Shown here piece by piece: positions 8,618 through 56,088 of a DNA stretch of 64,000 nucleotides (positions are counted from its first letter, which is position 1; the number at the start of each line of letters is the position of its first letter). The position numbers were made by a program, and so were the translations under genes. The notes under the pieces are model-generated. The model was not told where the DNA came from, searched no databases, and worked only from the letters and a program-made list of their open reading frames with translations. The stretch lies in NCBI GenBank assembly GCA_963774955.1, contig CAVZGV010000003.1, positions 320,771 to 384,770 on the forward strand. Direction: 5' to 3'. This DNA comes from Candidatus Falkowbacteria bacterium (GTDB lineage: Bacteria > Patescibacteriota > Patescibacteriia > CAIXNZ01).

Positions 8618-8722
8618 GGCGAAAACGCCCTTTGTCATTCTGAGGAACCGAAGAATCTATGATGTCACAGATCCTTCGCTCCGCTCAGGATGACAGTGAT
8701 CCGACAAAGGGCGTTTTCGCCC
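8618..8722. mobile_element. MITE copy 1 of the GGGCGAAAACGCCC-TTTGTCAT family (~105 bp, terminal inverted repeats).
   Basis: Left end ggcgaaaacgccctttgtcattctgagg, right end gacaaagggcgttttcgcc, with an internal sub-palindrome. About 93% identical to the copy at 51249-51353. It lies 6 bp after the rdgB stop. Confidence 0.8.
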
Positions 8723-29159: not shown

Positions 29160-29607
29160 TATGTCAAAAAATAATTTATCTCATCAAGAAAAATCCGTTG
29201 CTGGCGGGAAAATTCATCGTTGCTCAGTCTGCGGTTATATTTACAAAGATGGCGAAGCTCCGCTAGAATGTCCGATTTGCCAAAATAAAGGGACTTTTGA
29301 TGAAGTTAAACCAGAAGCAGTTAATTATGAATTTTTTAAAGATTGTTGGACTCGCCAGGTTAAATGGATGAATGCCACTAAATATCAGGATGAGATTATG
29401 CTTAATCCTGACGAAAGTGTTTTGAAAATGCTGGCTGAAGCTGAAGGGAAATTTTTACTTGACGGTAAACAGGCCTACTGCCCGTGCCGCATTTTAACCG
29501 GCAATGAACTGGCTGACCGCAAAATCATTTGCCCGTGTTATTTTTACATGGGGGAAATTGAATTGCAGGGTAGGTGCCATTGTAGTTTATATTTGAAGAA
29601 AAAATAG
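29152..29607 (+). CDS. Rubredoxin-like zinc ribbon fused to a ferredoxin:thioredoxin reductase catalytic-subunit (FtrB) domain.
   Basis: CSVCGY..(x14)..CPICQ rubredoxin knuckles, then CPCR...CPCYFYM...CHC, the CPC-x-CPC-x-CHC arrangement of the FTR catalytic chain. Confidence 0.7.
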   Translation: MNNMSKNNLSHQEKSVAGGKIHRCSVCGYIYKDGEAPLECPICQNKGTFDEVKPEAVNYEFFKDCWTRQVKWMNATKYQDEIMLNPDESVLKMLAEAEGKFLLDGKQAYCPCRILTGNELADRKIICPCYFYMGEIELQGRCHCSLYLKKK

Positions 29608-29714
29608 GGCGAAAACGCCCGATCTTGTCACCCTGAGCATAGTCGAATGGGTGACGCCGTCGGAGTATGGTTCGACTAGGCTCACCATGACAACAAGAGC
29701 GGGCGTTTTCGCCC
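29608..29714. mobile_element. MITE copy 2 (same TIR family, different internal sequence).
   Basis: gggcgaaaacgcccgatcttgtcaccctgagcatagtcgaa ... ttcgactaggctcaccatgacaacaagagcgggcgttttcgccc; starts immediately after the stop codon at 29607. Confidence 0.8.
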
Positions 29715-29741
29715 AAATTAATAAAATAATTGAAATGAAAT

Positions 29742-34763: not shown

Positions 34764-34866
34764 GCAAAAATGCCCTTTGTCTGTCGTTGTCATTCAGAAC
34801 AGTACAAAGAATCCAGGACTACATAGATTCCACGCTTCGCTCTGAATGACAAAGAGCATTTTTGCT
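34763..34866. mobile_element. MITE copy 3 (diverged TIR ggcaaaaatgccctttgtc).
   Basis: ggcaaaaatgccctttgtctgtcgttgtcattcagaac ... ctctgaatgacaaagagcatttttgc; begins at the fba stop. Confidence 0.7.
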
Positions 34867-45295: not shown

Positions 45296-46418
45296 GAAAA
45301 CGCTCTTTGTCATACCGGGTAAATGGTACCCAAACTGGTTGGTGAAAAGACAAAATTTCTGTTAAGGTTAGATTAAAATTGATACTTAATATTAAACTGG
45401 TTCAATATTATGAAAAAAAACTTGTCCAGATTGCTCCTCTAATAATGTAATTTTTTATGGCCAAAATGATTGCGGACGGCAAAGATTCAAGTGCGGGAAG
45501 TGCAATCGACTGTTTATTTTCCGCAATGCAAAGAATAAATTGAACCGCCAACTTAAATGGTTTAAATTATGGATAGCCGAAGGATATTCAGTCAGGCAAA
45601 TTTCGGGAATTAGCCACCACAGCAGGAAAACAATTAAGGGAATAATCAGTTATTGGCTCGCAAAATTACCGAGCCCTTTAAACGTACAAACCGGAATAAA
45701 ATATCTGCTTTTTGATGGTACATATTTCCACCGCATGAATTGCTTAATGCTGGCAATGAATAATGCCAATGGCCAAATCATCACAAATAGGTATTTAAGG
45801 CGTGAAAATTACTTTGCCGCCCTTGAGCTGTTCAAGGAGCTGTCAGATAAAGGAATCAAGCCTACAGCCATTACAATTGACGGTAATACTAGCGTAATTA
45901 GAGCCTTAAAGGACGCATGGCCGAATATCGTAATACAGCGCTGTATCGTTCATATCCAGAGGCAGGGATTATTTTGGTTAAGAATGCGTCCTAAACTGGA
46001 GCCATCGATACAATTACGCAAGATATTACTGGCGGTAACAAACATTAACAATTATCCGGAAAAACATAAATTTATTTCAGATTTTCATAAGTGGGAAAGA
46101 AAATTCGGCAAAGCGGTTTCAAGACTCGACTGTAACCACAAAGTCTTTAGTGATTTGCAAAGAACTAGAAGCTTAGTAATTCATGCCTTGCCCGACATGT
46201 TCCATTATTTAGATAATCCGAATATCGCCAAATCAACGAATAAACTTGAAGGATATTTTTCTCGTTTAAAAAGATTGTATCGCCAGCATTCAGGATTAAG
46301 CAAAGATAACAGAAACAATTACTTTAGCTGGTATATTCATTTCAAAAATCATTAATTCACCAACCAGGTTGGACCCCTTATACCCGAAATGACAAAAGAC
46401 AAAGGGCGTTTTCGCTCC
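45296..46418. mobile_element. IS1595-family-like insertion sequence (~1.1 kb); presumed autonomous parent of the MITE family.
   Basis: Imperfect ~45-bp TIRs: left gaaaacgctctttgtcataccgggtaaatggtacccaaactggttgg; the reverse complement of the right end is gagcgaaaacgccctttgtcttttgtcatttcggg..ccaacctggttgg. The ends match the MITE termini. Confidence 0.75.
45410..46355 (+). CDS. IS1595-like transposase (N-terminal zinc ribbon + DDE domain), with a frame break at an A8 run.
   Basis: The zinc ribbon CPDCSSNNVIFYGQNDCGRQRFKCGKCNRLF (45423-45515) is in frame with the ORF 45540..46355 but lacks an ATG. The ATG at 45410 (MKK) is one frame off across tgAAAAAAAAc. C-terminal ..TNKLEGYFSRLKRLYRQHSGLSKDNRNNYFSWYIHFKN is IS1595-like. 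Confidence 0.65.
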
Positions 46419-46428
46419 AATTTCATAT

Positions 46429-47583
46429 ATGCCCAAAGAAAAAGGACAACAAGATGCAGAAGCGCAGGACTTGGCTATGGCCAGGCGGGTTTTGGGTCAG
46501 GCTAAGGAATTGGATTTGACTGAACAGGAGAAAACAGAGCTAATGGAATTGATTAGTCAGGCCAAGGAAAAAGAAAATGCTAATAATTTGGCCGCAGCCA
46601 TAAAATTATACGGGCAGGCTAGGGACTTTATAAAAAATATTAAGGAGAAAAGTAATTACGATAAATTTGAGTGCTTGCAGTCCTGGGAAGCTCATAAGGG
46701 CGTTGCCTGGTCAGTTTTGTTAAGTTCTGACCAAAAGAAATTAATTTCCTGCGGCAGTGATAAGGCTGTCAGAGTTTGGGATAGAAAAACCGGTCAATGC
46801 GATAAAAGTTTAGAAATGCCGGAAGGTCATTGGGGTATTGTCAGGAGATTAAGACCAAGCAAAGACGGTGAACATTTTTATTCTGTCAGTAATGATGGTT
46901 CCTGTAAAATGTGGGATCAAAAAAACTGGCAGTGTGAAAAAACTTTTGAGCCAAACGAAGAAAATCAGCCAGTGTGCACGGACGTTATTGAATTGGATGA
47001 TAATATTTTAATTTCAACCCATCTTTCTCTTAAAATAAAATTATGGTCTAAAAAAAGCGAAGCTAATTCGGTTAGAGGATTGTTTGGAGTTAACGAGGTC
47101 TATGGAGGTATTAAAATAGGAGAAGATTTACTGGCATTATCAACAGATAGGGGGGTGGTAATTTATGACTTAGAAGCTCGTGGAGTTCCAAATATTTTAA
47201 ATAATGTTGCCTCGCAGGAAACAGCTATCTTAGAAAGTGCTGATAAAAAATATTTATTTGTTGGCGCTCCTATAATTAAACCCAAGGGTGAGGGCAATTT
47301 TGATTTGCAGATTTGGGATAAAGACGGCTGGGATCTAATTGCTTCTTTGCCCGGTCACGAAGATATTATCAGAAGTATTGTTCAAACCCGAGATGGAAAA
47401 CATTTGATTACCTGCAGCGATGACAAAACAGTTAAAGTCTGGGATATTGAACAAGAAAAATGCATAAAAACTTTTGACATGGAAGATCATGAACCCAGAT
47501 GTGTTATTGAAGCTGAAAATGGAGACATTATAACTACCGGCAGGGACGGAAAAATAAAGATTTGGGGAATAAAAGAAAAATAA
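46429..47583 (+). CDS. Family member 1: conserved N-terminal module + WD40 beta-propeller.
   Basis: N-terminus ..AQDLAMARRVLGQAKELDLTEQEKTELMELISQAKE..; WD40 repeats (..FECLQSWEAHKGVAWSV.., ..CGSDKAVRVWD.., ..DDKTVKVWD..). Confidence 0.8.
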   Translation: MPKEKGQQDAEAQDLAMARRVLGQAKELDLTEQEKTELMELISQAKEKENANNLAAAIKLYGQARDFIKNIKEKSNYDKFECLQSWEAHKGVAWSVLLSSDQKKLISCGSDKAVRVWDRKTGQCDKSLEMPEGHWGIVRRLRPSKDGEHFYSVSNDGSCKMWDQKNWQCEKTFEPNEENQPVCTDVIELDDNILISTHLSLKIKLWSKKSEANSVRGLFGVNEVYGGIKIGEDLLALSTDRGVVIYDLEARGVPNILNNVASQETAILESADKKYLFVGAPIIKPKGEGNFDLQIWDKDGWDLIASLPGHEDIIRSIVQTRDGKHLITCSDDKTVKVWDIEQEKCIKTFDMEDHEPRCVIEAENGDIITTGRDGKIKIWGIKEK

Positions 47584-47584
47584 T

Positions 47585-48820
47585 ATGAAAAAAAATATTG
47601 AACAACCCAAAGATGAGGTGCAGGAACTGGCCATGGCCAGGCAGGCTTTGGATAAGGTTAAGGAACTGGATTTGACTCCTGAGGAAAAAGAAAAAGTGAT
47701 GGCTATGATTGATAAGGCCAAGGAGCATGAACAGAACAAGGAGCTGTCAAAAGCCCTGAATGTATATAACGAACTTCTGCGGTTATTGAAAAACAAAGAA
47801 AATATCGGCAATTTAGAAAAGTTAGTTAAATATGGTGACTTTGAGATTTTGTATTCGCAGGCGCAGGTATTATTTGCCTTGGAGGAAGAGATTGCCAAAG
47901 TTAAGAATAGTGTTGATCCGCTGGTCCATTATTCAGAATTGGTAATCAGGCAAATACTTATCGATAAAGGGCTTAAAGTTGAAGCCGGAAATGTAATAAA
48001 ATTAAACGTTAGTCATCTTGACATAGCAACTTTGCCGGACTTAAAATCCTTAGAAAAACTGGAAGATTTAAACTGTTCGTATAATAAGTTATCTGTATTG
48101 CCAGAGTTAAAGACGTTATCAAAAATTAAAATAATAAATTGTTCTTGTAATCAGTTATCTGAATTACCGGATTTAAGCGCCTTAAAAAATCTTGATACTT
48201 TGTTTTGTGACTCAAATCATCTCACTGTAATGCAGGATCTAAGCGCTTTAATTAATCTTAAACGATTAAATTTAAGTATTAATTATTTTAGTGGTTTACC
48301 TGACTTGAGCCACTTGACTAAACTGGAATTTTTGGACTGTTCAAGGAATGAATTAATTTATTTGCCCGATCTTAAAGCCTTAAAAAAACTGGAACATTTA
48401 GAATGTAATAACTGCGAATTGGTAGGCTTGCCGGATTTTGAAGATTTAAAAAAAATAAGAATATTAAGCTGCAGTCACAATCTTTTGTCTTTCATCCCTG
48501 GCCTTAGTAAATTGGAAGATATTGAAGATTTGGATTGTTCAAATAATCTGATATTAAATCTTGACGACGTTAGTTCCTTGGAAACGCTTGTTAAGCTACA
48601 GATTGAAAATAATAAAATAACTAGTTTGCCTGATTTATCCAGGCTGGATCAACTGGAAGTTTTAAATTGTTCTCGAAATAAATTATCCATCTTGCCCAGA
48701 GATTTAGTCGGGTTAGAAGATCTTAAAGAAGTTTGGCTGGGAGGCTGTATAGTGAATAGGACTGAAACTGAGGAAGAATTTGAGGAAATTTTACCGGCAG
48801 GATGTGAAATATATTGGTAG
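47585..48820 (+). CDS. Family member 2: conserved N-terminal module + leucine-rich repeat domain.
   Basis: ..VQELAMARQALDKVKELDLTPEEKEKVMAMIDKAKE..; ~13 LRRs of type LxxLxxLxxLxCSxNxLSxLPDL. Confidence 0.8.
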   Translation: MKKNIEQPKDEVQELAMARQALDKVKELDLTPEEKEKVMAMIDKAKEHEQNKELSKALNVYNELLRLLKNKENIGNLEKLVKYGDFEILYSQAQVLFALEEEIAKVKNSVDPLVHYSELVIRQILIDKGLKVEAGNVIKLNVSHLDIATLPDLKSLEKLEDLNCSYNKLSVLPELKTLSKIKIINCSCNQLSELPDLSALKNLDTLFCDSNHLTVMQDLSALINLKRLNLSINYFSGLPDLSHLTKLEFLDCSRNELIYLPDLKALKKLEHLECNNCELVGLPDFEDLKKIRILSCSHNLLSFIPGLSKLEDIEDLDCSNNLILNLDDVSSLETLVKLQIENNKITSLPDLSRLDQLEVLNCSRNKLSILPRDLVGLEDLKEVWLGGCIVNRTETEEEFEEILPAGCEIYW

Positions 48821-48890
48821 TTTGGAAAAAAGTACGAGCCGCGGAGCGGCATTCCGCTGCGTGGAAAAGTCCGAATTTATAATAATTTTT

Positions 48891-50261
48891 ATGCCCAAAG
48901 AAAAAATACAAGCAGATAAAATTGAAGCTCAGGAACTGGCCATGGCCAGGCGGGTTTTGGGTACTGTTAAGGAATTGCCGATGTCTGAGGCTGAAAAGGC
49001 CAAGCTTATGGAATTGATTGATCAGGCAAAGCAATTGGAAACAGAAAATAAGTTGCATCAGGCCATTGTGGTTTATAATCAGGCAGCCGGTCTGATGCGG
49101 AAAATTAAAGCCAGAAATGAAAATCAGGTTAGAACCAATCCCAAGGAATCGTGGGACTGGCAGGTCGGAGAAAAATTATTGTTGGATGACGAAGGATTTA
49201 TTGGCCCAAAAGGCTTTGCTCAATTTGATACCGCGGTATTTACTACGGACGGAGAAACTGTTTTGTGTGAAGTAAGCGACCAATTCATCAATTGGCTGGC
49301 AAAGAATGGTAAAACAGCTGCTGAAACAGTCTTTAAAAGTAAACAACTTGTAGCCAGTAATGATGGGCAGCATTTTGCCGCATTAGTTTTGAATACTGCA
49401 GACGGCGATGAAGACTTTTATGAGGTCGTCACAGATAAAGGCAAAGGGATATATAAATCTTCTGAAGCTTGCAAAAAATTGATGTTCAGTCCTGACGGAG
49501 AAAAATTAGCAGTCTTTGTGAAGGATGAGGTTTCCAGCCCCAGTGACCAGTATTATAAAATTGTTGAAAACGGCCAATTGCTTTTTCCCTGGATTTATGG
49601 CGATCCTTCAGACCCCAAAGATTATCGCTTGAAAGATATAATCTATAGTCCTGATAGTCAGAAACGAGCAGCTATCATTCATGGGCTTGGCAGTGACTTC
49701 AGTGATGCAAATGAGGTTTCAGAGAGTATTGTAGTAGATGGCGATAAAAAGTGGCAACCACAAGCAGCGACTTTGAAATGGCCGGTTTATAGCCCTGATG
49801 GTGAAAAACTGGCAGTAGTAGACCGTGAAGGTCAGATTATGGTTAATGAAAAATATATTGAAATTCTTTCCGGGAAAAAAGCCCTGAGTCCGCCGGTTTT
49901 TAGCCCCAATGGAGAAAAGATCGCTTATGTTGTTAGCCTGGACCCGAGAAAAACAAGTTTTACTTTAGCTGAGGATGATAAAATCAAATGGGAACATTCC
50001 ATGTTTAAAGAAATACGCGATTTTGTTTATAGTGATGACGGACAAAGCATTGCAGCTGTGGTAATAAATCCAAGCGAGGAAGCAAACGAAATTAAAATTG
50101 CGGTCAACGGTATTAATATTGATGACGATGAATATATTAATGTTAAACATTTAACCTTCAGTCCTGATGGACAAAAGATTATGTATGTGGGACAAAAAGA
50201 CGACGGTAAATATTTTCGGATTGTCAAAGATGTCAGTGATTATGCAAAAATTCAGACATAA
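48891..50261 (+). CDS. Family member 3: conserved N-terminal module + PD40/TolB-like beta-propeller.
   Basis: ..AQELAMARRVLGTVKELPMSEAEKAKLMELIDQAKQ..; six (F/Y)SPDG(E/Q)K(L/I)A blades. The ORF extends upstream to 48780; start taken at MPKEKIQ. Confidence 0.75.
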   Translation: MPKEKIQADKIEAQELAMARRVLGTVKELPMSEAEKAKLMELIDQAKQLETENKLHQAIVVYNQAAGLMRKIKARNENQVRTNPKESWDWQVGEKLLLDDEGFIGPKGFAQFDTAVFTTDGETVLCEVSDQFINWLAKNGKTAAETVFKSKQLVASNDGQHFAALVLNTADGDEDFYEVVTDKGKGIYKSSEACKKLMFSPDGEKLAVFVKDEVSSPSDQYYKIVENGQLLFPWIYGDPSDPKDYRLKDIIYSPDSQKRAAIIHGLGSDFSDANEVSESIVVDGDKKWQPQAATLKWPVYSPDGEKLAVVDREGQIMVNEKYIEILSGKKALSPPVFSPNGEKIAYVVSLDPRKTSFTLAEDDKIKWEHSMFKEIRDFVYSDDGQSIAAVVINPSEEANEIKIAVNGINIDDDEYINVKHLTFSPDGQKIMYVGQKDDGKYFRIVKDVSDYAKIQT

Positions 50262-50266
50262 ATATA

Positions 50267-51241
50267 TTGGATAAATTTATGCGCCAAGAAAAAATACAAT
50301 CAAAAAGTGAACAGCAACAGGCACTGGCCATGGCCAGGCGGGTTTTGGGTCAGGCTAAGGAAATGAAATTGAATTCTGACCAGCATAAAAAAATGATGGG
50401 AATGATAGACAAAGCTCGAGGTTTTGAAGTCACAGGGGAGACACAAAAGGCTTTGCACGTATATTTGGCTTTGAAAACTTATTTAGAAGAAATTAAGAAT
50501 GGTCCCAAATTTACTTTCAGCGGAGTAGCTGATAGAACAAAAGATAATCATGAGGTGCTGTTATTTTTTGATGAAGAATTGGAAAAATCTAAGGCTTTTT
50601 ATGAGAATGAAGGGGTTGATTGGGTGGAATTCCCTGAGCAAATTATAATTACCCAGAGTCAAGAAGCCGAGATGAAACGTTGTATCAGAGAGTTTAGTTT
50701 TAATAAAATTATGATCATACCTGCTGGCTTGGCTGTTGATGCTGATGAAATGAATATACTTCATAGTTTAATGGGCAGACTATACCCGCCGACTAAATAT
50801 AATCCCAATTATACAAAATATGCAGGTACTAAAATTTTAGAAAAAAGGCAAAATTTGCGAATTGTTTTATATCGCAATCAGAAAGGTTTGGATGACTTGT
50901 ATCTGCAAACCAGGGGCAAATCTGCCGAAGAATTAATGGCCCCAGGTGGCTTAATGGATACTTTAGGGTTGGAAGGACTTTCTGAAGCTGAATTTTTAGT
51001 GCTACAACATCAGCATTTTTTGGATTTTCCTGCAGATTATATGTATATGGGAGATGAGGTTATGCTTTTAGGAAGTAATTTTATGAAAACTGACGAGGGG
51101 CATGAAATGGCAGTCAGCGCTTATTGGGATCTTTCAGGCACTCATTCACCCAAAGGATTAGTATTTGATGGCCGGCCTAAAAATATGCTTGGTTCCGGTG
51201 TCGGATGTCCGTTGGTTAAGACTTTTGAAATTAAGGATTAA
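50267..51241 (+). CDS. Family member 4: conserved N-terminal module + uncharacterised alpha/beta C-terminal domain.
   Basis: ..QQALAMARRVLGQAKEMKLNSDQHKKMMGMIDKAR..; the likely start is the Met at 50279 (MRQEKIQ). Confidence 0.7.
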   Translation: MDKFMRQEKIQSKSEQQQALAMARRVLGQAKEMKLNSDQHKKMMGMIDKARGFEVTGETQKALHVYLALKTYLEEIKNGPKFTFSGVADRTKDNHEVLLFFDEELEKSKAFYENEGVDWVEFPEQIIITQSQEAEMKRCIREFSFNKIMIIPAGLAVDADEMNILHSLMGRLYPPTKYNPNYTKYAGTKILEKRQNLRIVLYRNQKGLDDLYLQTRGKSAEELMAPGGLMDTLGLEGLSEAEFLVLQHQHFLDFPADYMYMGDEVMLLGSNFMKTDEGHEMAVSAYWDLSGTHSPKGLVFDGRPKNMLGSGVGCPLVKTFEIKD

Positions 51242-51248
51242 GGCTGAA

Positions 51249-51353
51249 GGGCGAAAACGCCCTTTGTCATTCTGAGGAACCGAAGAATCTGTGAGACACA
51301 GATCCTTCGCTACGCTCAGGATGACAGTGAACCGACAAAGGGCGTTTTCGCCC
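51249..51353. mobile_element. MITE copy 6 (~93% identical to copy 1).
   Basis: gggcgaaaacgccctttgtcattctgaggaaccgaagaatctgtgagacacagatccttcgctacgctcaggatgacagtgaaccgacaaagggcgttttcgccc. Confidence 0.85.
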
Positions 51354-51364
51354 AGATAAGAAAT

Positions 51365-52513
51365 ATGCTAAAAGAAAAAATACAACCTAAAAATGAATCA
51401 GCGCAGGCCTTGGAGATGGCCCGATTTGCTTTGGGTCGGGTCAAGGAGATGGATTTATCTGAGCAAGAGAAAGAAAAACTAATGGAATTAATTAGCCAGG
51501 CTAAAGCTAAAGAACTAAATAATGAATTGGGAGCGGCTTTAAAATTATATATCCAAGCCAAGGATTTTTTAAATAATATAAAAAAACAAAGTAAGTACGA
51601 TAAGTTCGAATGTTTACAGACGCTTGAAGGCCATGAAGACAGGGTAAATGCTGTTTTGGAAACAAGGGATGCTAAATATATTATTTCCGGCGGTTCAGAT
51701 AATAATATTATTGTTCGGGACAGGAATAGCGGCCAGCAGATTGAAATTTTAAAGGAACATAAAGGACTTATTCACGCGCTTAAAGAAACAGAAGACGGCC
51801 AATATATACTATCAACCAGTTATGACGGAACCATTAAAATGTGGGATAAAGAAACCTGGGAATGTGTTCAGACGTTTATCAGGAAAGAAGAACGCGACCG
51901 CGATAAGGTTGTTATGGATGTGGTTGAAATAGATGATCAGACTTTGGCTTCTATTAGTAATGCGGTTATTACAATCTGGGATAAGGAAACAGGGGAAGAA
52001 AAAGAAAGTCTTTATCCTGAAGGTATGGCAGGTACTTTTTATAGTCTTGAAAAAATTGCCAACAAAGAGTCATTACTTATAACAAGTGATCTGATCACCA
52101 GAATTTATAGCTTAACATCGAATGACTGGGATCTGGGTTTTGGCGAAGATACAAAAGGAAGTTCTGTAGCTAAGGAAAGTAATGACCATAAATTTATTTT
52201 TTATGTGACCTCTTATAATGCTGCCGAGCCTTACAAAATTCGAATGTGGAATCAGGATACCTGGGATGTTGAGGCTGAGTTTAAGGGGCACCAGAAAGAT
52301 GTTAAGGGAATGCTTCAGACTAAGGACGGCAAGCATTTAATCACCCTTGCCAATGACAAGACAATCAGGGTCTGGGATATTGCCACTCAGGAATGCCTTA
52401 AAGTTTTTGAACTGGATGATTTTGTTCCGACTTGCATCGCGGAATCTGCCAATGGTGACATTATTGTCGGCGGAGCAGACAAAACTATTAAAATTTTTGG
52501 TCAAAAAAAGTAA
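51365..52513 (+). CDS. Family member 5: conserved N-terminal module + WD40 beta-propeller (closest paralog of member 1).
   Basis: ..AQALEMARFALGRVKEMDLSEQEKEKLMELISQAKA..; ..FECLQTLEGHEDRVNAV.., ..NDKTIRVWD.. Confidence 0.8.
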   Translation: MLKEKIQPKNESAQALEMARFALGRVKEMDLSEQEKEKLMELISQAKAKELNNELGAALKLYIQAKDFLNNIKKQSKYDKFECLQTLEGHEDRVNAVLETRDAKYIISGGSDNNIIVRDRNSGQQIEILKEHKGLIHALKETEDGQYILSTSYDGTIKMWDKETWECVQTFIRKEERDRDKVVMDVVEIDDQTLASISNAVITIWDKETGEEKESLYPEGMAGTFYSLEKIANKESLLITSDLITRIYSLTSNDWDLGFGEDTKGSSVAKESNDHKFIFYVTSYNAAEPYKIRMWNQDTWDVEAEFKGHQKDVKGMLQTKDGKHLITLANDKTIRVWDIATQECLKVFELDDFVPTCIAESANGDIIVGGADKTIKIFGQKK

Positions 52514-52523
52514 CTATATAATT

Positions 52524-53582
52524 ATGTCTGAAAAAATTAAATCACAACAAACTAGGGAAAAATCATCTTTGGAAATGGCTAGAGCTACATTGGGCCGAGT
52601 CAAGGAGATGGATCTGACGCCGGAGCAAAAGGAAAAAATGATGCAGATGATTGACATTGCTAATCAGCATGAACAGGCAGGGGATAAGTCCAAGGCTTTA
52701 ATTGCCTACAATGAATTAAAAAAGTTTTTAGAGGAAATTTCCAAGCCGGATGAGGTTATTGATTACAATGGTTTGAGGATAAAAAAATCACAAGCTAAAT
52801 TTTTAGAAGATTTAGCTCGACAAAAGGCTGGATTTTTTAATACAAATGCTTATGAACAGTTTAGAGATGATGTAGTTAAGTTTGTTAAAGAGGTTGATGA
52901 TGATGGCAATATTTTGGCAATTGATTGCACTGGCCAGAATTTAATAGCCTTGCCAGAGTTACCGCCTAATTTAGAAAAATTAAATTGTTCCATGAATAGT
53001 AATCTTACTTCTTTACCACCTTTGCCTGACAGTTTGATTGAACTTGATATTTTGCAGTGTCAAATCGATGTTTTGCCTGAATTGCCAAAAGGATTGAAAA
53101 AACTTGATTGTACAGATACTGATATAACCAAATTACCATCTTTACCCCCGAATTTAGAATTTTTACATTGTGGCCAAAATCTGGGATTAAAATTTGATCC
53201 AGAAGAACCTTTACCGGCAAGTTTGATAGATTTTAACTGTTGGAATTGTAATTTAGATAAACTTCCTGATTTGCCCAAAGGTTTGAAAACATTAGACTGT
53301 CGATCCAATCGACTTACGGAGTTGCCGACCCTACCTGAAACTCTGGATGCTTTAATAGTAGATGGAAATATATTTTTTGAGTTGCCGTCATTGCCCAAAA
53401 ATATCAGAGTTATTTTTTGCAATAAAAGTCATTTGACAGATTTACCCCCGTTACCTAAAAATTTGCAAGCTTTGTATGCAGATCAGAATGCTTTTAGCCA
53501 AAAGACTATCGATGCCATTAAAGCCCATCCTAATTTTGACCCTGAAAATTTTAAATTTAAAAATCTGGAAGATTTTGTTTAA
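52524..53582 (+). CDS. Family member 6: conserved N-terminal module + YopM/IpaH-type LPX leucine-rich repeats.
   Basis: ..SSLEMARATLGRVKEMDLTPEQKEKMMQMIDIAN..; 20-22-aa repeats L(T/P)xLPxLPxxLxxLxCxxNx (..LIALPELPPNLEKLNCSMNSNLTSLPPLPDSLIELD..LPELPKGLKKLDC..). Confidence 0.8.
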   Translation: MSEKIKSQQTREKSSLEMARATLGRVKEMDLTPEQKEKMMQMIDIANQHEQAGDKSKALIAYNELKKFLEEISKPDEVIDYNGLRIKKSQAKFLEDLARQKAGFFNTNAYEQFRDDVVKFVKEVDDDGNILAIDCTGQNLIALPELPPNLEKLNCSMNSNLTSLPPLPDSLIELDILQCQIDVLPELPKGLKKLDCTDTDITKLPSLPPNLEFLHCGQNLGLKFDPEEPLPASLIDFNCWNCNLDKLPDLPKGLKTLDCRSNRLTELPTLPETLDALIVDGNIFFELPSLPKNIRVIFCNKSHLTDLPPLPKNLQALYADQNAFSQKTIDAIKAHPNFDPENFKFKNLEDFV

Positions 53583-53631
53583 TAAGTAATTGGTAATTTG
53601 TAATTAGTAAAAAGAAAATATTATTTTAAAT

Positions 53632-54465
53632 ATGATCATTGATTCTCACGCCCATATTACATTCAAAGAGTATGCCAAGGATTTACAGGACGTTATTAAA
53701 CGTTCTTTTGAGGTTGGCGTACAAATAATCAATGCCAGTAATAGTTTAGAGACAAGCAGGCAGGCAGTTGAACTGGCTGAAAAATATGACAATATGTGGG
53801 CGGTTGTGGGTTGTCATCCGGATGATTTGGAGGAAAATTTGTCCGCCAGAGGCGGATCCGCCCATGGCGGAGATATTGAAAAATATAGGCAGTTGGCGCA
53901 GTCAAGCAAAAAGGTTGTCGGCATTGGGGAAGTGGGGTTGGATTATTATCGCTTAGCAGAAAATGGTAAAGACACAAAAGCTTATCAAAAAGAAATTTTT
54001 ATGCAGTTTATTGATTTGGCGCAGGAACTTGATTTGCCCCTGGTTTTGCATTGCCGGGGAGCGAAGGATGATCCCTATTGCGCCTACGACGAAATTCTTG
54101 ATTTCCTAAAATCTAAAACCCAAAATCCTAAATCTGAAAGCCGTGGTGTCATTCATTGTTTCGGCGGTAATTTGGAACAGGCAAACAAGTTTTTAGATTT
54201 AGGTTTTTACATAGGCATTACCGGTATTGTGACTTTCAAAAATGCCAAGGAACTGCAGGCCATTGTTAAAGAAGTTCCTTTAGATAAAATTTTAATTGAA
54301 ACAGATGCGCCGTTTTTAGCTCCAGAGCCGTATCGCGGGCAAAGGAATGAACCGAGTTATGTAAAATATGTTTGTCAGAAAATTGCGGATTTGAAAGGAT
54401 TATCTTTTGAGGAAGTAGAATCTGCGACTTATAAAAATACCTGTAGGTTATTCAATCTTAAATAA
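53632..54465 (+). CDS. tatD: TatD-family metal-dependent DNase/hydrolase.
   Basis: MIIDSHAHI.., ..GEVGLDYY.., ..LPLVLHCR.., ..GIVTF.., ..ETDAPFL.. Confidence 0.8.
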   Translation: MIIDSHAHITFKEYAKDLQDVIKRSFEVGVQIINASNSLETSRQAVELAEKYDNMWAVVGCHPDDLEENLSARGGSAHGGDIEKYRQLAQSSKKVVGIGEVGLDYYRLAENGKDTKAYQKEIFMQFIDLAQELDLPLVLHCRGAKDDPYCAYDEILDFLKSKTQNPKSESRGVIHCFGGNLEQANKFLDLGFYIGITGIVTFKNAKELQAIVKEVPLDKILIETDAPFLAPEPYRGQRNEPSYVKYVCQKIADLKGLSFEEVESATYKNTCRLFNLK

Positions 54466-54516
54466 TGAACTAATACTGCTAATTTGCTTCTAATCTACTA
54501 ATAATTCATTAAAATT

Positions 54517-54966
54517 ATGGCAAAATTTAGGGATGATTTATTGTATAAAGAGTTGAGTTTTCAAATAGTAGGCATAATGTTTAACGTTTATAATGAGCTG
54601 GGATATGGATATCAGGAGAAATACTATCAGAAAGCAATCGAAAGAGCGCTTGAGGAATCGGGTATCAAATACCGCGAACAAGTACCTTTCAGAATAATAT
54701 TCAAACAAAGAAATATAGGGATATATTATTTAGATTTTTTAATTGATGATAAGATAGTCGTTGAATTAAAAGTCGGTAAAAAATTTGCTAAGAAAGATTT
54801 TGATCAGGTTAAGGGATATTTACATGCCTCTAATAAAAAATTGGCACTACTAATTAATTTTACGCCCCTAGGAGTTAAATTTTTAAGAGTAATAAATTTC
54901 GAAGATAAAATAACAGAAACATCAGCTGAATTAAAATTAAATAATTTACGTAAATTATTTAATTAG
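54517..54966 (+). CDS. GxxExxY-family protein (PD-(D/E)XK-like).
   Basis: GYGYQEKYYQ (G..E..Y motif); ~150 aa. Confidence 0.6.
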   Translation: MAKFRDDLLYKELSFQIVGIMFNVYNELGYGYQEKYYQKAIERALEESGIKYREQVPFRIIFKQRNIGIYYLDFLIDDKIVVELKVGKKFAKKDFDQVKGYLHASNKKLALLINFTPLGVKFLRVINFEDKITETSAELKLNNLRKLFN

Positions 54967-54999
54967 AAGATTAGTAGCTAATTAGTAAATTAGTAGCTT

Positions 55000-56088
55000 A
55001 TGACAAAAAGAATTGAACAACCTCAAAATGAACAATCTCAGGAGCTGGCTATGGCCAGGCAGGCTTTGGGTCGGGTTAAGGAAATGAATTTGACGCCGGA
55101 GCAAAAGGAAAAGATAATGGCTATGATTGACGAGGCCAAAGAGGCCGAAAAATCCGGTCAAAAATCTAAAGCTTTAAAGATTTATAGGGAGTTGAAAGAA
55201 TCTTTAGAGAAAATAAAGTCATCAGAAAGTCTGGAATCGTTTCAGAATAAGACAGTTGAATTTATTAATGAGGGTTCTAATAAATTTTCAGATCGACGAA
55301 ATATTGCCATGGCATTGGCCGGAATAGATTCTGACCAAGCTTGGGAATTAAGATCTAAAATTTTGGAAACAAGCTGGAAGGATGTTAATTTTTTAACGCA
55401 TGTCGGATATAGTTTGGCTGGATTAGATTCTCAAGCGGCCTGGGATTTGAGAACTAAAATCCGGGAAAAAGGAGCAGATATTCACATAAGTTTAATAGGA
55501 CTGGATTCTGATAAAGCCTGGCAGCTGCGGAGAGAACTTTTAGAAAAAGGCGCTGATAATTGGTCTATCATGGAGAGTTTAGCCGGATTAGATTCAGCCG
55601 AGGCTTGGGAAATGAGGGATAAACTCATGGAACGAGGAGCGCATAAAAACGCTTTAGTTTCTAGTTTGGTAGGGTTGGATTCGGATAAAGCCTGGAAAAT
55701 AAGAGAGGAGGTTCTCGAAGACAAGGATGAAACTAACAGCTTATATGACTTGGCTAAAAGTCTAATAGGTTTGGATTCAGCCAAGGCTTGGAGCATGAGA
55801 CAACAGCTTTTGGAAAAAGGATTAGAAAAACAATTTATTGTTGGATTGTTAGGCGGAGCAGACTCGGAAAAAGCCTGGGCAATGAGGGAGGAAGTTATAA
55901 TGAAAATATCGGAAGGTAATAATGTTGCTATGAGTTTAGACGGGCTGGATTCGGAAAGAGCCTGGGATATGAGAGCGGAACTTATTGAGCAAGGAGTGCG
56001 ATTTGATGATGTTGCCTTGGGTATTTATGGCGGTTATTCGATGGAAGCTGTGCGTAAGGCCAGACGAGATGAAATATTTAAAAGTTAA
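55000..56088 (+). CDS. Family member 7: conserved N-terminal module + eight tandem ~34-aa alpha-helical repeats (L.GLDS..AW..R..L.E.G).
   Basis: ..SQELAMARQALGRVKEMNLTPEQKEKIMAMIDEAKE..; repeats LAGIDSDQAWELRSKILE / LAGLDSQAAWDLRTKIRE / LIGLDSDKAWQLRRELLE / LAGLDSAEAWEMRDKLME / ... Confidence 0.75.
   Translation: MTKRIEQPQNEQSQELAMARQALGRVKEMNLTPEQKEKIMAMIDEAKEAEKSGQKSKALKIYRELKESLEKIKSSESLESFQNKTVEFINEGSNKFSDRRNIAMALAGIDSDQAWELRSKILETSWKDVNFLTHVGYSLAGLDSQAAWDLRTKIREKGADIHISLIGLDSDKAWQLRRELLEKGADNWSIMESLAGLDSAEAWEMRDKLMERGAHKNALVSSLVGLDSDKAWKIREEVLEDKDETNSLYDLAKSLIGLDSAKAWSMRQQLLEKGLEKQFIVGLLGGADSEKAWAMREEVIMKISEGNNVAMSLDGLDSERAWDMRAELIEQGVRFDDVALGIYGGYSMEAVRKARRDEIFKS

Follow-up and report, generated by a model that had tools for sequence, protein, structure and literature searches.

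The question raised by this locus is whether a block of nearly identical nucleotides at the 5' ends of otherwise diverged tandem genes serves to exchange the protein domains encoded downstream of it, or is the trace of a more ordinary process. The locus is an array of seven paralogous genes (m1 to m7, positions 46429-56088) within a 64,000-nt stretch of DNA from a Candidatus Falkowbacteria bacterium (contig CAVZGV010000003.1 of assembly GCA_963774955.1), which was analysed at its full length, has a GC content of 38% and is referred to below as the window. An earlier note on this DNA had proposed that the N-terminal module of these genes is conserved at the DNA level and that recombination shuffles C-terminal binding domains behind it. 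Our analysis suggests, with a probability of roughly 60%, that the block, which we call the identity island, is the footprint of repeated short-tract gene conversion among tandem paralogs. This kind of phenomenon is known and is ordinary in gene families; the case itself is new, and nothing in it indicates a programmed switching system.

A tandem array of seven paralogs

The seven genes lie on the same strand and have in common an N-terminal module of ~75 amino acids (aa), the copies of which align with 61% mean column identity and 14 invariant residues. A tblastn search of the window recovered exactly seven copies of the module, those of m1 to m7. The module is predicted to form three helices and is fused to C-termini of five mutually unrelated types, namely WD40, leucine-rich repeats, helical repeats, a PD40 propeller and a domain of unknown fold. 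All seven are complete open reading frames (ORFs), each with its own aligned ATG and a full-length module; the gaps between abutting genes measure 1-123 nt and contain no small ORFs. The members of the array are as follows.

46429..47583, + strand: m1, 384 aa, module and WD40 propeller (from the ORF, Pfam and the module alignment)
47585..48820, + strand: m2, 411 aa, module and leucine-rich repeats
48891..50261, + strand: m3, 456 aa from the ATG that aligns with the other copies, module and PD40/TolB-like propeller
50279..51241, + strand: m4, 320 aa, module and a C-terminal domain of unknown fold without a Pfam match
51365..52513, + strand: m5, 382 aa, module and WD40 propeller, nearest relative m1, without the island haplotype
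52524..53582, + strand: m6, 352 aa, module and leucine-rich repeats, without the island haplotype
55000..56088, + strand: m7, 362 aa, module and LAGLDSxxAW helical repeats, separated from m6 by the TatD and PD-(D/E)XK genes

A longer ORF for m3, starting from a TTG at 48780, is probably a gene-calling artefact. The gene order WD40 then leucine-rich repeats is found both in m1-m2 (46429-48820) and in m5-m6 (51365-53582), and m1 and m5 have an upstream hairpin in common. These two pairs are probably the products of an old two-gene segmental duplication, given that the synonymous sites are saturated.

An island of nucleotide identity

The identity island comprises ~45 nt at module codons 13/14 to 27/28, with the consensus CAG GAA CTG GCC ATG GCC AGG CGG GTT TTG GGT xxx Gxx AAG GAA, and is carried by five of the seven genes (m1, m2, m3, m4 and m7). 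The remaining two, m5 and m6, encode a near-identical peptide motif with different codons, and their proportion of synonymous differences (pS, calculated according to Nei-Gojobori) relative to the other five genes is 0.5-1.1 at this site. The positions of the island, of the homologous sites and of a second identity tract are listed below.

46465..46509, + strand: island in m1, codons 13-27, including 33 nt identical to m4
47621..47665, + strand: island in m2, with a perfect 14-bp palindrome CTGGCCATGGCCAG at 47627-47640
48930..48974, + strand: island in m3, palindrome at 48936-48949
50318..50362, + strand: island in m4, palindrome at 50324-50337
55039..55083, + strand: island in m7, with the Q-A haplotype ATGGCCAGGCAGGCTTTGG in common with m2
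51404..51448, + strand: homologous site in m5, with synonymous and non-synonymous divergence and a 15-nt tract GTCAAGGAGATGGAT common to m6
52563..52607, + strand: homologous site in m6, diverged
52615..52636, + strand: second, separate identity tract, 22 nt TGACGCCGGAGCAAAAGGAAAA common to m6 and m7 (55091-55112 in m7)

The 30-mer GAACTGGCCATGGCCAGGCGGGTTTTGGGT occurs exactly in m3 (48933-48962), with one mismatch in m4 (50321-50350) and with three mismatches each in m1 (46468-46497) and m2 (47624-47653), and has no match in dinucleotide-shuffled sequence. The near-identical block that the earlier note placed at the 5' ends of the paralogs therefore exists, but it is only ~45 nt long and belongs to five of the seven genes. 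Members 1 and 4, which were said to have about 30 consecutive nucleotides in common, are identical over 33 nt in their longest run (ATGGCCAGGCGGGTTTTGGGTCAGGCTAAGGAA, 46477-46509 in m1 and 50330-50362 in m4), and the string assigned to members 2, 3 and 7 is exact over 22 nt in m2 and m3 (CAGGAACTGGCCATGGCCAGGC) but differs at two positions in the m7 version (CAGGAGCTGGCTATGGCCAGGC). Other exact runs were found between m3 and m4 (28 nt), m1 and m3 (21 nt) and m2 and m7 (19 nt).

These runs were compared with a null model in which the seven protein sequences were kept fixed and every codon was redrawn from the codon usage of the window, with 5000 draws over all 21 pairs of genes. The longest run expected under this model has a mean of 15.8 nt and a 99th percentile of 24 nt, and runs of at least 33 nt appeared in 0 of 5000 draws (p<2e-4); runs of 20 nt or longer were seen in five pairs, versus 0.08 expected. 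When any two of the seven genes are compared, exact runs of at least 16 nt occur only in the module, where the island holds six of them and codons 31-38 hold one. The C-termini of m1 to m7 have no such runs between them, and even the WD40 parts of m1 and m5, which are homologous (1,173 aligned nt), have no exact run longer than 13 nt.

Synonymous divergence and codon usage

The pS of the island is 0.00-0.29 among m1, m2, m3, m4 and m7, and 0.00-0.05 among m2, m3 and m4. The module outside the island gives values of 0.55-1.1, its codons 29-75 give 0.57-0.92 with a mean of 0.77, and the C-termini of alignable pairs give about 0.5-1.0. The proposed conservation of the N-terminal module at the DNA level thus holds for codons 13/14 to 27/28 but not for codons 29-75, where synonymous sites have reached the same saturation as elsewhere in the genes. 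The comparison of synonymous divergence between module and C-terminal domains, which had been suggested as a check, has the same outcome: most of the module behaves as the remainder of the genes do, in keeping with constraint at the protein level only, and the island alone departs from this behavior.

A simpler account would be that purifying selection on a very conserved peptide, together with codon bias, chance or an assembly artefact, is sufficient to produce the island. The island is indeed the most conserved stretch of the protein as well, with a proportion of non-synonymous differences (pN) of 0.19 versus 0.40 in the flanks, and three of its codons (GGT, GAA and GTT) are the preferred ones of the genome. 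However, other invariant residues of the module (A46, A58 and Y62) are encoded by mixed codons, m5 and m6 spell nearly the same motif with other codons, and the codon-resampling null is rejected. If the assembly were chimeric, relationships would switch from one lineage to another in one direction only and would not form a patch with the same lineage on both flanks, of the kind described in the next section. Taken together, the pS values, the mosaic tests and the codon-resampling null reject the account, and we consider it hardly credible.

Several island codons are not preferred in the window, where AGG and CGG make up 16% and 9% of the arginine codons and AAG makes up 29% of the lysine codons; AAG and TTG are nevertheless used in all seven copies at their island positions. 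The GC content at third codon positions (GC3) is 0.61 in the island versus 0.43 expected from its amino acids and the codon usage of the window (z=3.7). Codons 1-13 of the paralogs are strongly AT-rich (GC3 of 0.12 versus 0.37 expected), which fits translation initiation without a Shine-Dalgarno sequence. The genes of the window are without Shine-Dalgarno sequences and have AT-rich upstream regions. An internal start, with AGGA as a Shine-Dalgarno sequence 7 nt before the ATG of the MAR motif, was rejected since the genes of the window are without such sequences. Also against it are the upstream 16-17 codons, which are open in 7/7 copies with in-frame insertions and deletions, and the MPKEKPQ leader, which is conserved across subfamilies.

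Mosaic relationships among the paralogs

The affinities of individual genes change within the island. Over the module m1 is m5-like (61 versus 22 informative sites), as it is in the upstream hairpin and the C-terminus, but between nt 50 and 84 it is m4-like at 11/11 informative sites (triplet maximum chi-square test, permutation p=0.001). Similarly, m7 sides with m6 overall but, within nt 40-66, with m2 at 14/14 sites (p=0.004); m2 in turn sides with m3 at 23/24 sites within nt 29-84 (p=0.001). A GENECONV-style run test was significant after Bonferroni correction for the pairs m1-m4, m3-m4, m2-m3, m6-m7 and m4-m5, at positions that differ between pairs, for example nt 93-112 for m6-m7 and nt 10-28 for m4-m5. 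The derived codons CAG GCT (Q-A) are common to m1 and m4 at positions that are variable in amino acid in the other copies, so that the two have a copied tract in common rather than a motif.

The patches are flanked on both sides by sequence of the gene's own lineage. This arrangement excludes an assembly chimera, which would produce a one-way switch, and it also means that no C-terminus has been exchanged. The collapse of synonymous divergence in the island only, relationships within it that contradict those of both flanks, and tracts that are specific to pairs of genes support the part of the earlier proposal that invoked gene conversion or recombination.

Probable short-tract gene conversion

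From these patterns we infer that the process is probably conversion of the RecA type, possibly with a GC bias. The site of the island coincides with the most conserved protein motif of the module, Q-x-L-A-M-A-R-x-x-L-G-x-x-K-E, and strong constraint on the protein would keep this motif similar enough between copies to seed the formation of heteroduplexes. Non-reciprocal homologous recombination between copies, with partners that vary, would then wipe out synonymous differences. If conversion or repair favored G and C, this would account for the G/C-ending codons, which are unusual for a genome with 38% GC. The patch leaves the C-termini in place and would be a by-product of tandem paralogy. 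The same homology may occasionally lead to unequal crossover, by which whole family members would be added or removed.

Short-tract gene conversion in bacterial multigene families is exemplified by tufA/tufB, Neisseria opa and the mycobacterial PE/PPE genes, and concerted evolution by gene conversion in such families was reportedly reviewed by Santoyo and Romero in 2005. The array resembles cases of concerted evolution in having islands of nucleotide identity in saturated paralogs, mosaicism, tracts of tens of nucleotides and copies that are tandem or nearby. It differs in the very small length of the tract (~20-45 nt) and in its location within a short N-terminal module, the remaining parts of the proteins being non-homologous.

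Relatives in other genomes

We searched for relatives of the module with several methods. The module profile gave no match in a word-indexed protein search. Peptide patterns and the DNA pattern of the island were also scanned against viral contigs, GTDB genomes and JGI metagenomes, again without a match. An exhaustive profile search with the module found 54 cluster representatives, nearly all with the module at the N-terminus and with widely varied C-termini. The relatives are annotated as Candidatus Parcubacteria. One subfamily (subfamily 1, LxMARQxLGRVKEMDLTPE) is found in three genomes only and another (subfamily 2, SLESQLKMARPRRxEVKRVPLTPEEKEFLG) has a wider distribution. At least 12 members of the family occur in the richest sister genome, which has members on a 294-kb contig.

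The comparison of subfamily DNA between genomes covers five foreign copies, all from the metagenome-assembled genome (MAG) GCA_026395725.1 (loci L005-L007). When the copies are compared irrespective of orthology, the pS of the island is 0-0.29 within the window, 0.18-0.88 between genomes and 0.40-0.88 within the MAG. The copies of the MAG are thus less homogeneous in the island, and homogenization would therefore be specific to the genome. The MAG contains, at L005:1200-1420 (contig JAPLYE010000094.1), a truncated copy (P0006) that runs out of frame into the next one (P0023). In P0023 the MPKEK leader is missing and the MAR-x-TL-G motif is duplicated in tandem over 7 codons, which is a rearrangement scar at the island.

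Subfamily 2 offers a comparison of gene content at a syntenic locus, where the family lies between DUF2304 and GT2 genes. In one lineage (L001, L003 and L004) the locus holds two paralogs in tandem, 460 aa and 193 aa long, and in a lineage with 85-86% identical flanks (L008-L011) the 193-aa gene stands alone. The difference amounts to 1,424 bp (L001:10001-12006 versus L008:6001-6582) and has both of its ends inside the ~200-nt module, with an insertion or a deletion alike possible. This difference and the rearrangement in the MAG suggest that the module mediates occasional unequal recombination, which supports a weak, evolutionary form of the earlier idea and not a switching mechanism.

Possible selection on the nucleic acid itself

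Several observations weigh against conversion as the explanation of the island. Each pair of genes has only ~10 synonymous sites in it, the region was picked after inspection of the sequence, and the permutation tests on polymorphic sites take no account of rates that vary from site to site. Fast divergence of m5 and m6 at the island could also be the source of some of the mosaic signal. In addition, the second-genome copies P0006 and P0023 retain the unusual codons, and their island pS relative to the five copies of the window is 0.18-0.49, lower than that of the flanks. Retention of codons across genomes is not predicted by neutral conversion alone and points to nucleotide-level constraint or to biased conversion. 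As far as the G/C-ending codons are concerned, GC-biased conversion fits this retention as well as selection does.

The corresponding alternative is that the island is a functional nucleic-acid element kept by selection on nucleotides rather than by conversion, for instance the palindrome CTGGCCATGGCCAG as a protein-binding site, an mRNA element, or a pause at rare arginine codons in which the AGG CGG cluster would slow translation ~20 codons into the gene. The GC-rich 14-bp palindrome is perfect in m2, m3 and m4 and has one mismatch in m7, and the use of non-preferred codons together with the invariance of AAG and TTG would be natural for such an element, as would the stretch AGG CAG GTT TTG GGT CGG GTx AAG GAA kept in P0006 and P0023. 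We found, however, that the element is missing from genes that are intact (m5, m6, P0020 and P0017), that the tracts are specific to pairs and reach over codons that vary in amino acid, and that the island motif does not occur in the JGI metagenomes or the GTDB representative genomes. A run of 32 identical GC-rich nucleotides at the MAR motif of two adjacent subfamily-2 paralogs, in a genome with 34% GC, appears to support the alternative, but it does not stand out statistically from its surroundings (1/30 versus 23/141 differing sites between the two paralogs).

The evidence on structure also bears on this alternative. A conserved RNA structure was rejected with RNAalifold, which gave a consensus of -3.9 kcal/mol on 11 sequences with little covariation, each copy folding differently. 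The island has no match in Rfam and no antisense or inverted copies in the window. Four of the eight G-run motifs of the window (GG/GG/GGG/GGG) are islands, namely those of m1, m3, m4 and m7 (46473-46496, 48938-48961, 50326-50349 and 55053-55075), a concentration that would suit an element acting as nucleic acid, but no G-quadruplex is predicted in the minimum-free-energy folds. Overall we regard a functional nucleic-acid element as unlikely.

The proposed programmed switching and comparable systems

The earlier note had gone beyond recombination to a mechanism akin to antigenic variation. In its strict form, C-terminal binding domains would be exchanged by a cassette system, either programmed or acting at high frequency, for which the island provides the anchoring homology, as in antigenic variation or a shufflon. 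The general architecture, a tandem family with a constant N-terminus and highly diverse C-termini, agrees with this, and the runs of 28-33 nt are near the minimal length for RecA-dependent recombination in Escherichia coli, which Shen and Huang in 1986 are said to have put at about 23-27 bp. The one-gene versus two-gene difference of subfamily 2, with its boundaries inside the module, and the rearrangement scar of the MAG can be counted on the same side. The organization of the array does not agree with it: the seven genes are all full-length with a start of their own, they are not divided into an expression site and silent cassettes, and no conserved block follows the variable parts on the 3' side. 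The window was found to contain neither cassettes that are silent or truncated at the 5' end nor variable segments homologous to each other. All island copies are on the + strand and none of the 21 inverted-repeat pairs of the window contains an inverted copy; because the islands are in direct orientation, a crossover between them would irreversibly delete or duplicate genes instead of switching them. Neither an invertase nor an integrase lies nearby, and a search among the array neighbors for a site-specific recombinase found none, the sole recombinase-like gene being the Mutator-family transposase of an insertion sequence (IS). The events that were detected are internal patches with the same gene on both sides, each gene keeping its own downstream module and C-terminus, and the proposed shuffling of binding domains finds no support among them. 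A programmed system is accordingly very improbable in our judgment.

Comparison with known systems leads in the same direction. The array resembles Neisseria pilE/pilS, Borrelia vlsE and the R64 pilV shufflon in recombination among related sequences near a gene for a surface or interaction protein and in the G-rich motif of the island, but it is without an expression site with silent cassettes, inverted repeats, a dedicated recombinase, homologous variable segments and a predicted G-quadruplex. The polymorphic toxin loci of the Rhs, CdiA and LXG types are similar in that copies lie in clusters, a constant N-terminus precedes varied C-termini, and homology where the two meet is capable of supporting replacement. 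In the array, the module matches no known trafficking domain, most C-termini are binding scaffolds and none matches a toxin family, and there are neither immunity genes nor orphan cassettes missing the N-terminus. Its island also lies at codons 13-28 and not at the junction of module and C-terminus (~codon 75-85).

A further proposal treats the GC-rich island, set around the invariant L-x-M-A-R motif, as an anchor of homology under selection that would serve the gain, loss and re-pairing of C-terminal binding domains in a family of host-interaction proteins of Parcubacteria-type episymbionts. Conversion would keep the anchor identical and unequal crossover would add or remove members, giving a diversification of effectors that needs no recombinase. 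The module breakpoints of subfamily 2, the rearrangement scar of the MAG and the partial retention of codons across genomes are compatible with this proposal, which we nonetheless hold to be quite doubtful.

Meaning of the island

With short-tract conversion as the favored explanation, the island represents a clean, statistically supported instance of concerted evolution by very short tracts in a reduced genome of the Candidate Phyla Radiation (CPR). Recombination among paralogs in CPR is little documented, and our full-text literature search found no paper on it. As it stands, the phenomenon at the DNA level requires no new mechanism and is what tandem paralogy would be expected to produce as a by-product. 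The island also marks an undescribed modular protein family, that of the 54 cluster representatives, in which a module without a Pfam domain precedes varied protein-binding C-termini; this family may mediate interaction with host cells. If it is true that the module is a recombination substrate for the gain and loss of members, this would help to explain how interaction proteins diversify in tiny genomes.

The module and its C-terminal partners

For the module, structure prediction gives a three-helix bundle (predicted local distance difference test score, pLDDT, of 79), and Pfam gives no hit. Its helices 2-3 gave weak, non-significant profile hits (E 0.09-0.3) to helices 1-2 of the MIT domain in six VPS4/SKD1 chains of the PDB, and a Foldseek search returned only generic bundles with E>1 and no MIT structure. 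The likeness to the MIT domain of VPS4 consists of the three-helix bundle and this weak helix alignment; the match is non-significant and without support from Pfam or Foldseek. We infer that the module is a common docking or targeting module ahead of interchangeable binding domains.

The C-terminal domain of m4 has no Pfam match and no significant fold match in the PDB or with Foldseek (model pLDDT of 76). Domains of this type measure ~240 aa, are of the alpha/beta class, end in G-C-R/P-L and are found behind both module subfamilies. The same type is present in P0008, P0027, P0029, P0032, P0037 and P0047.

Neighborhood of the array

The neighbors of the array encode MetRS, a methyltransferase, a TPR protein, DUF3298, CvpA, TatD, a PD-(D/E)XK protein, RNase HII and ATP synthase; the genes for MetRS, CvpA, TatD, RNase HII and ATP synthase give the surroundings a housekeeping character. 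Two further elements lie next to or within it.

45306..46396, + strand: IS element directly upstream of m1, with 41-nt imperfect terminal inverted repeats and a Mutator-family (PF00872) transposase ORF at 45540-46355 (271 aa)
51249..51353, no strand assigned: palindromic repeat element in the m4-m5 intergenic region, a full copy with the inverted hairpin pair GGGCGAAAACGCCC / GGGCGTTTTCGCCC around a ~70-nt palindromic core (GTCAYYCTGAG...)

The whole window has no tRNA gene according to ARAGORN and no Rfam family at the gathering threshold, and a search of Rfam with the intergenic palindromic element gave no match. Nearly all long ORFs of the window (1-64000) are on the + strand. The intergenic element recurs at 29607-29723, as a half copy upstream of m1 (46398-46415) and as cores near 8665-8700 and 34820-34860, and a copy that is 85% identical is present in MAG GCA_026395725.1 (L006:106-190).

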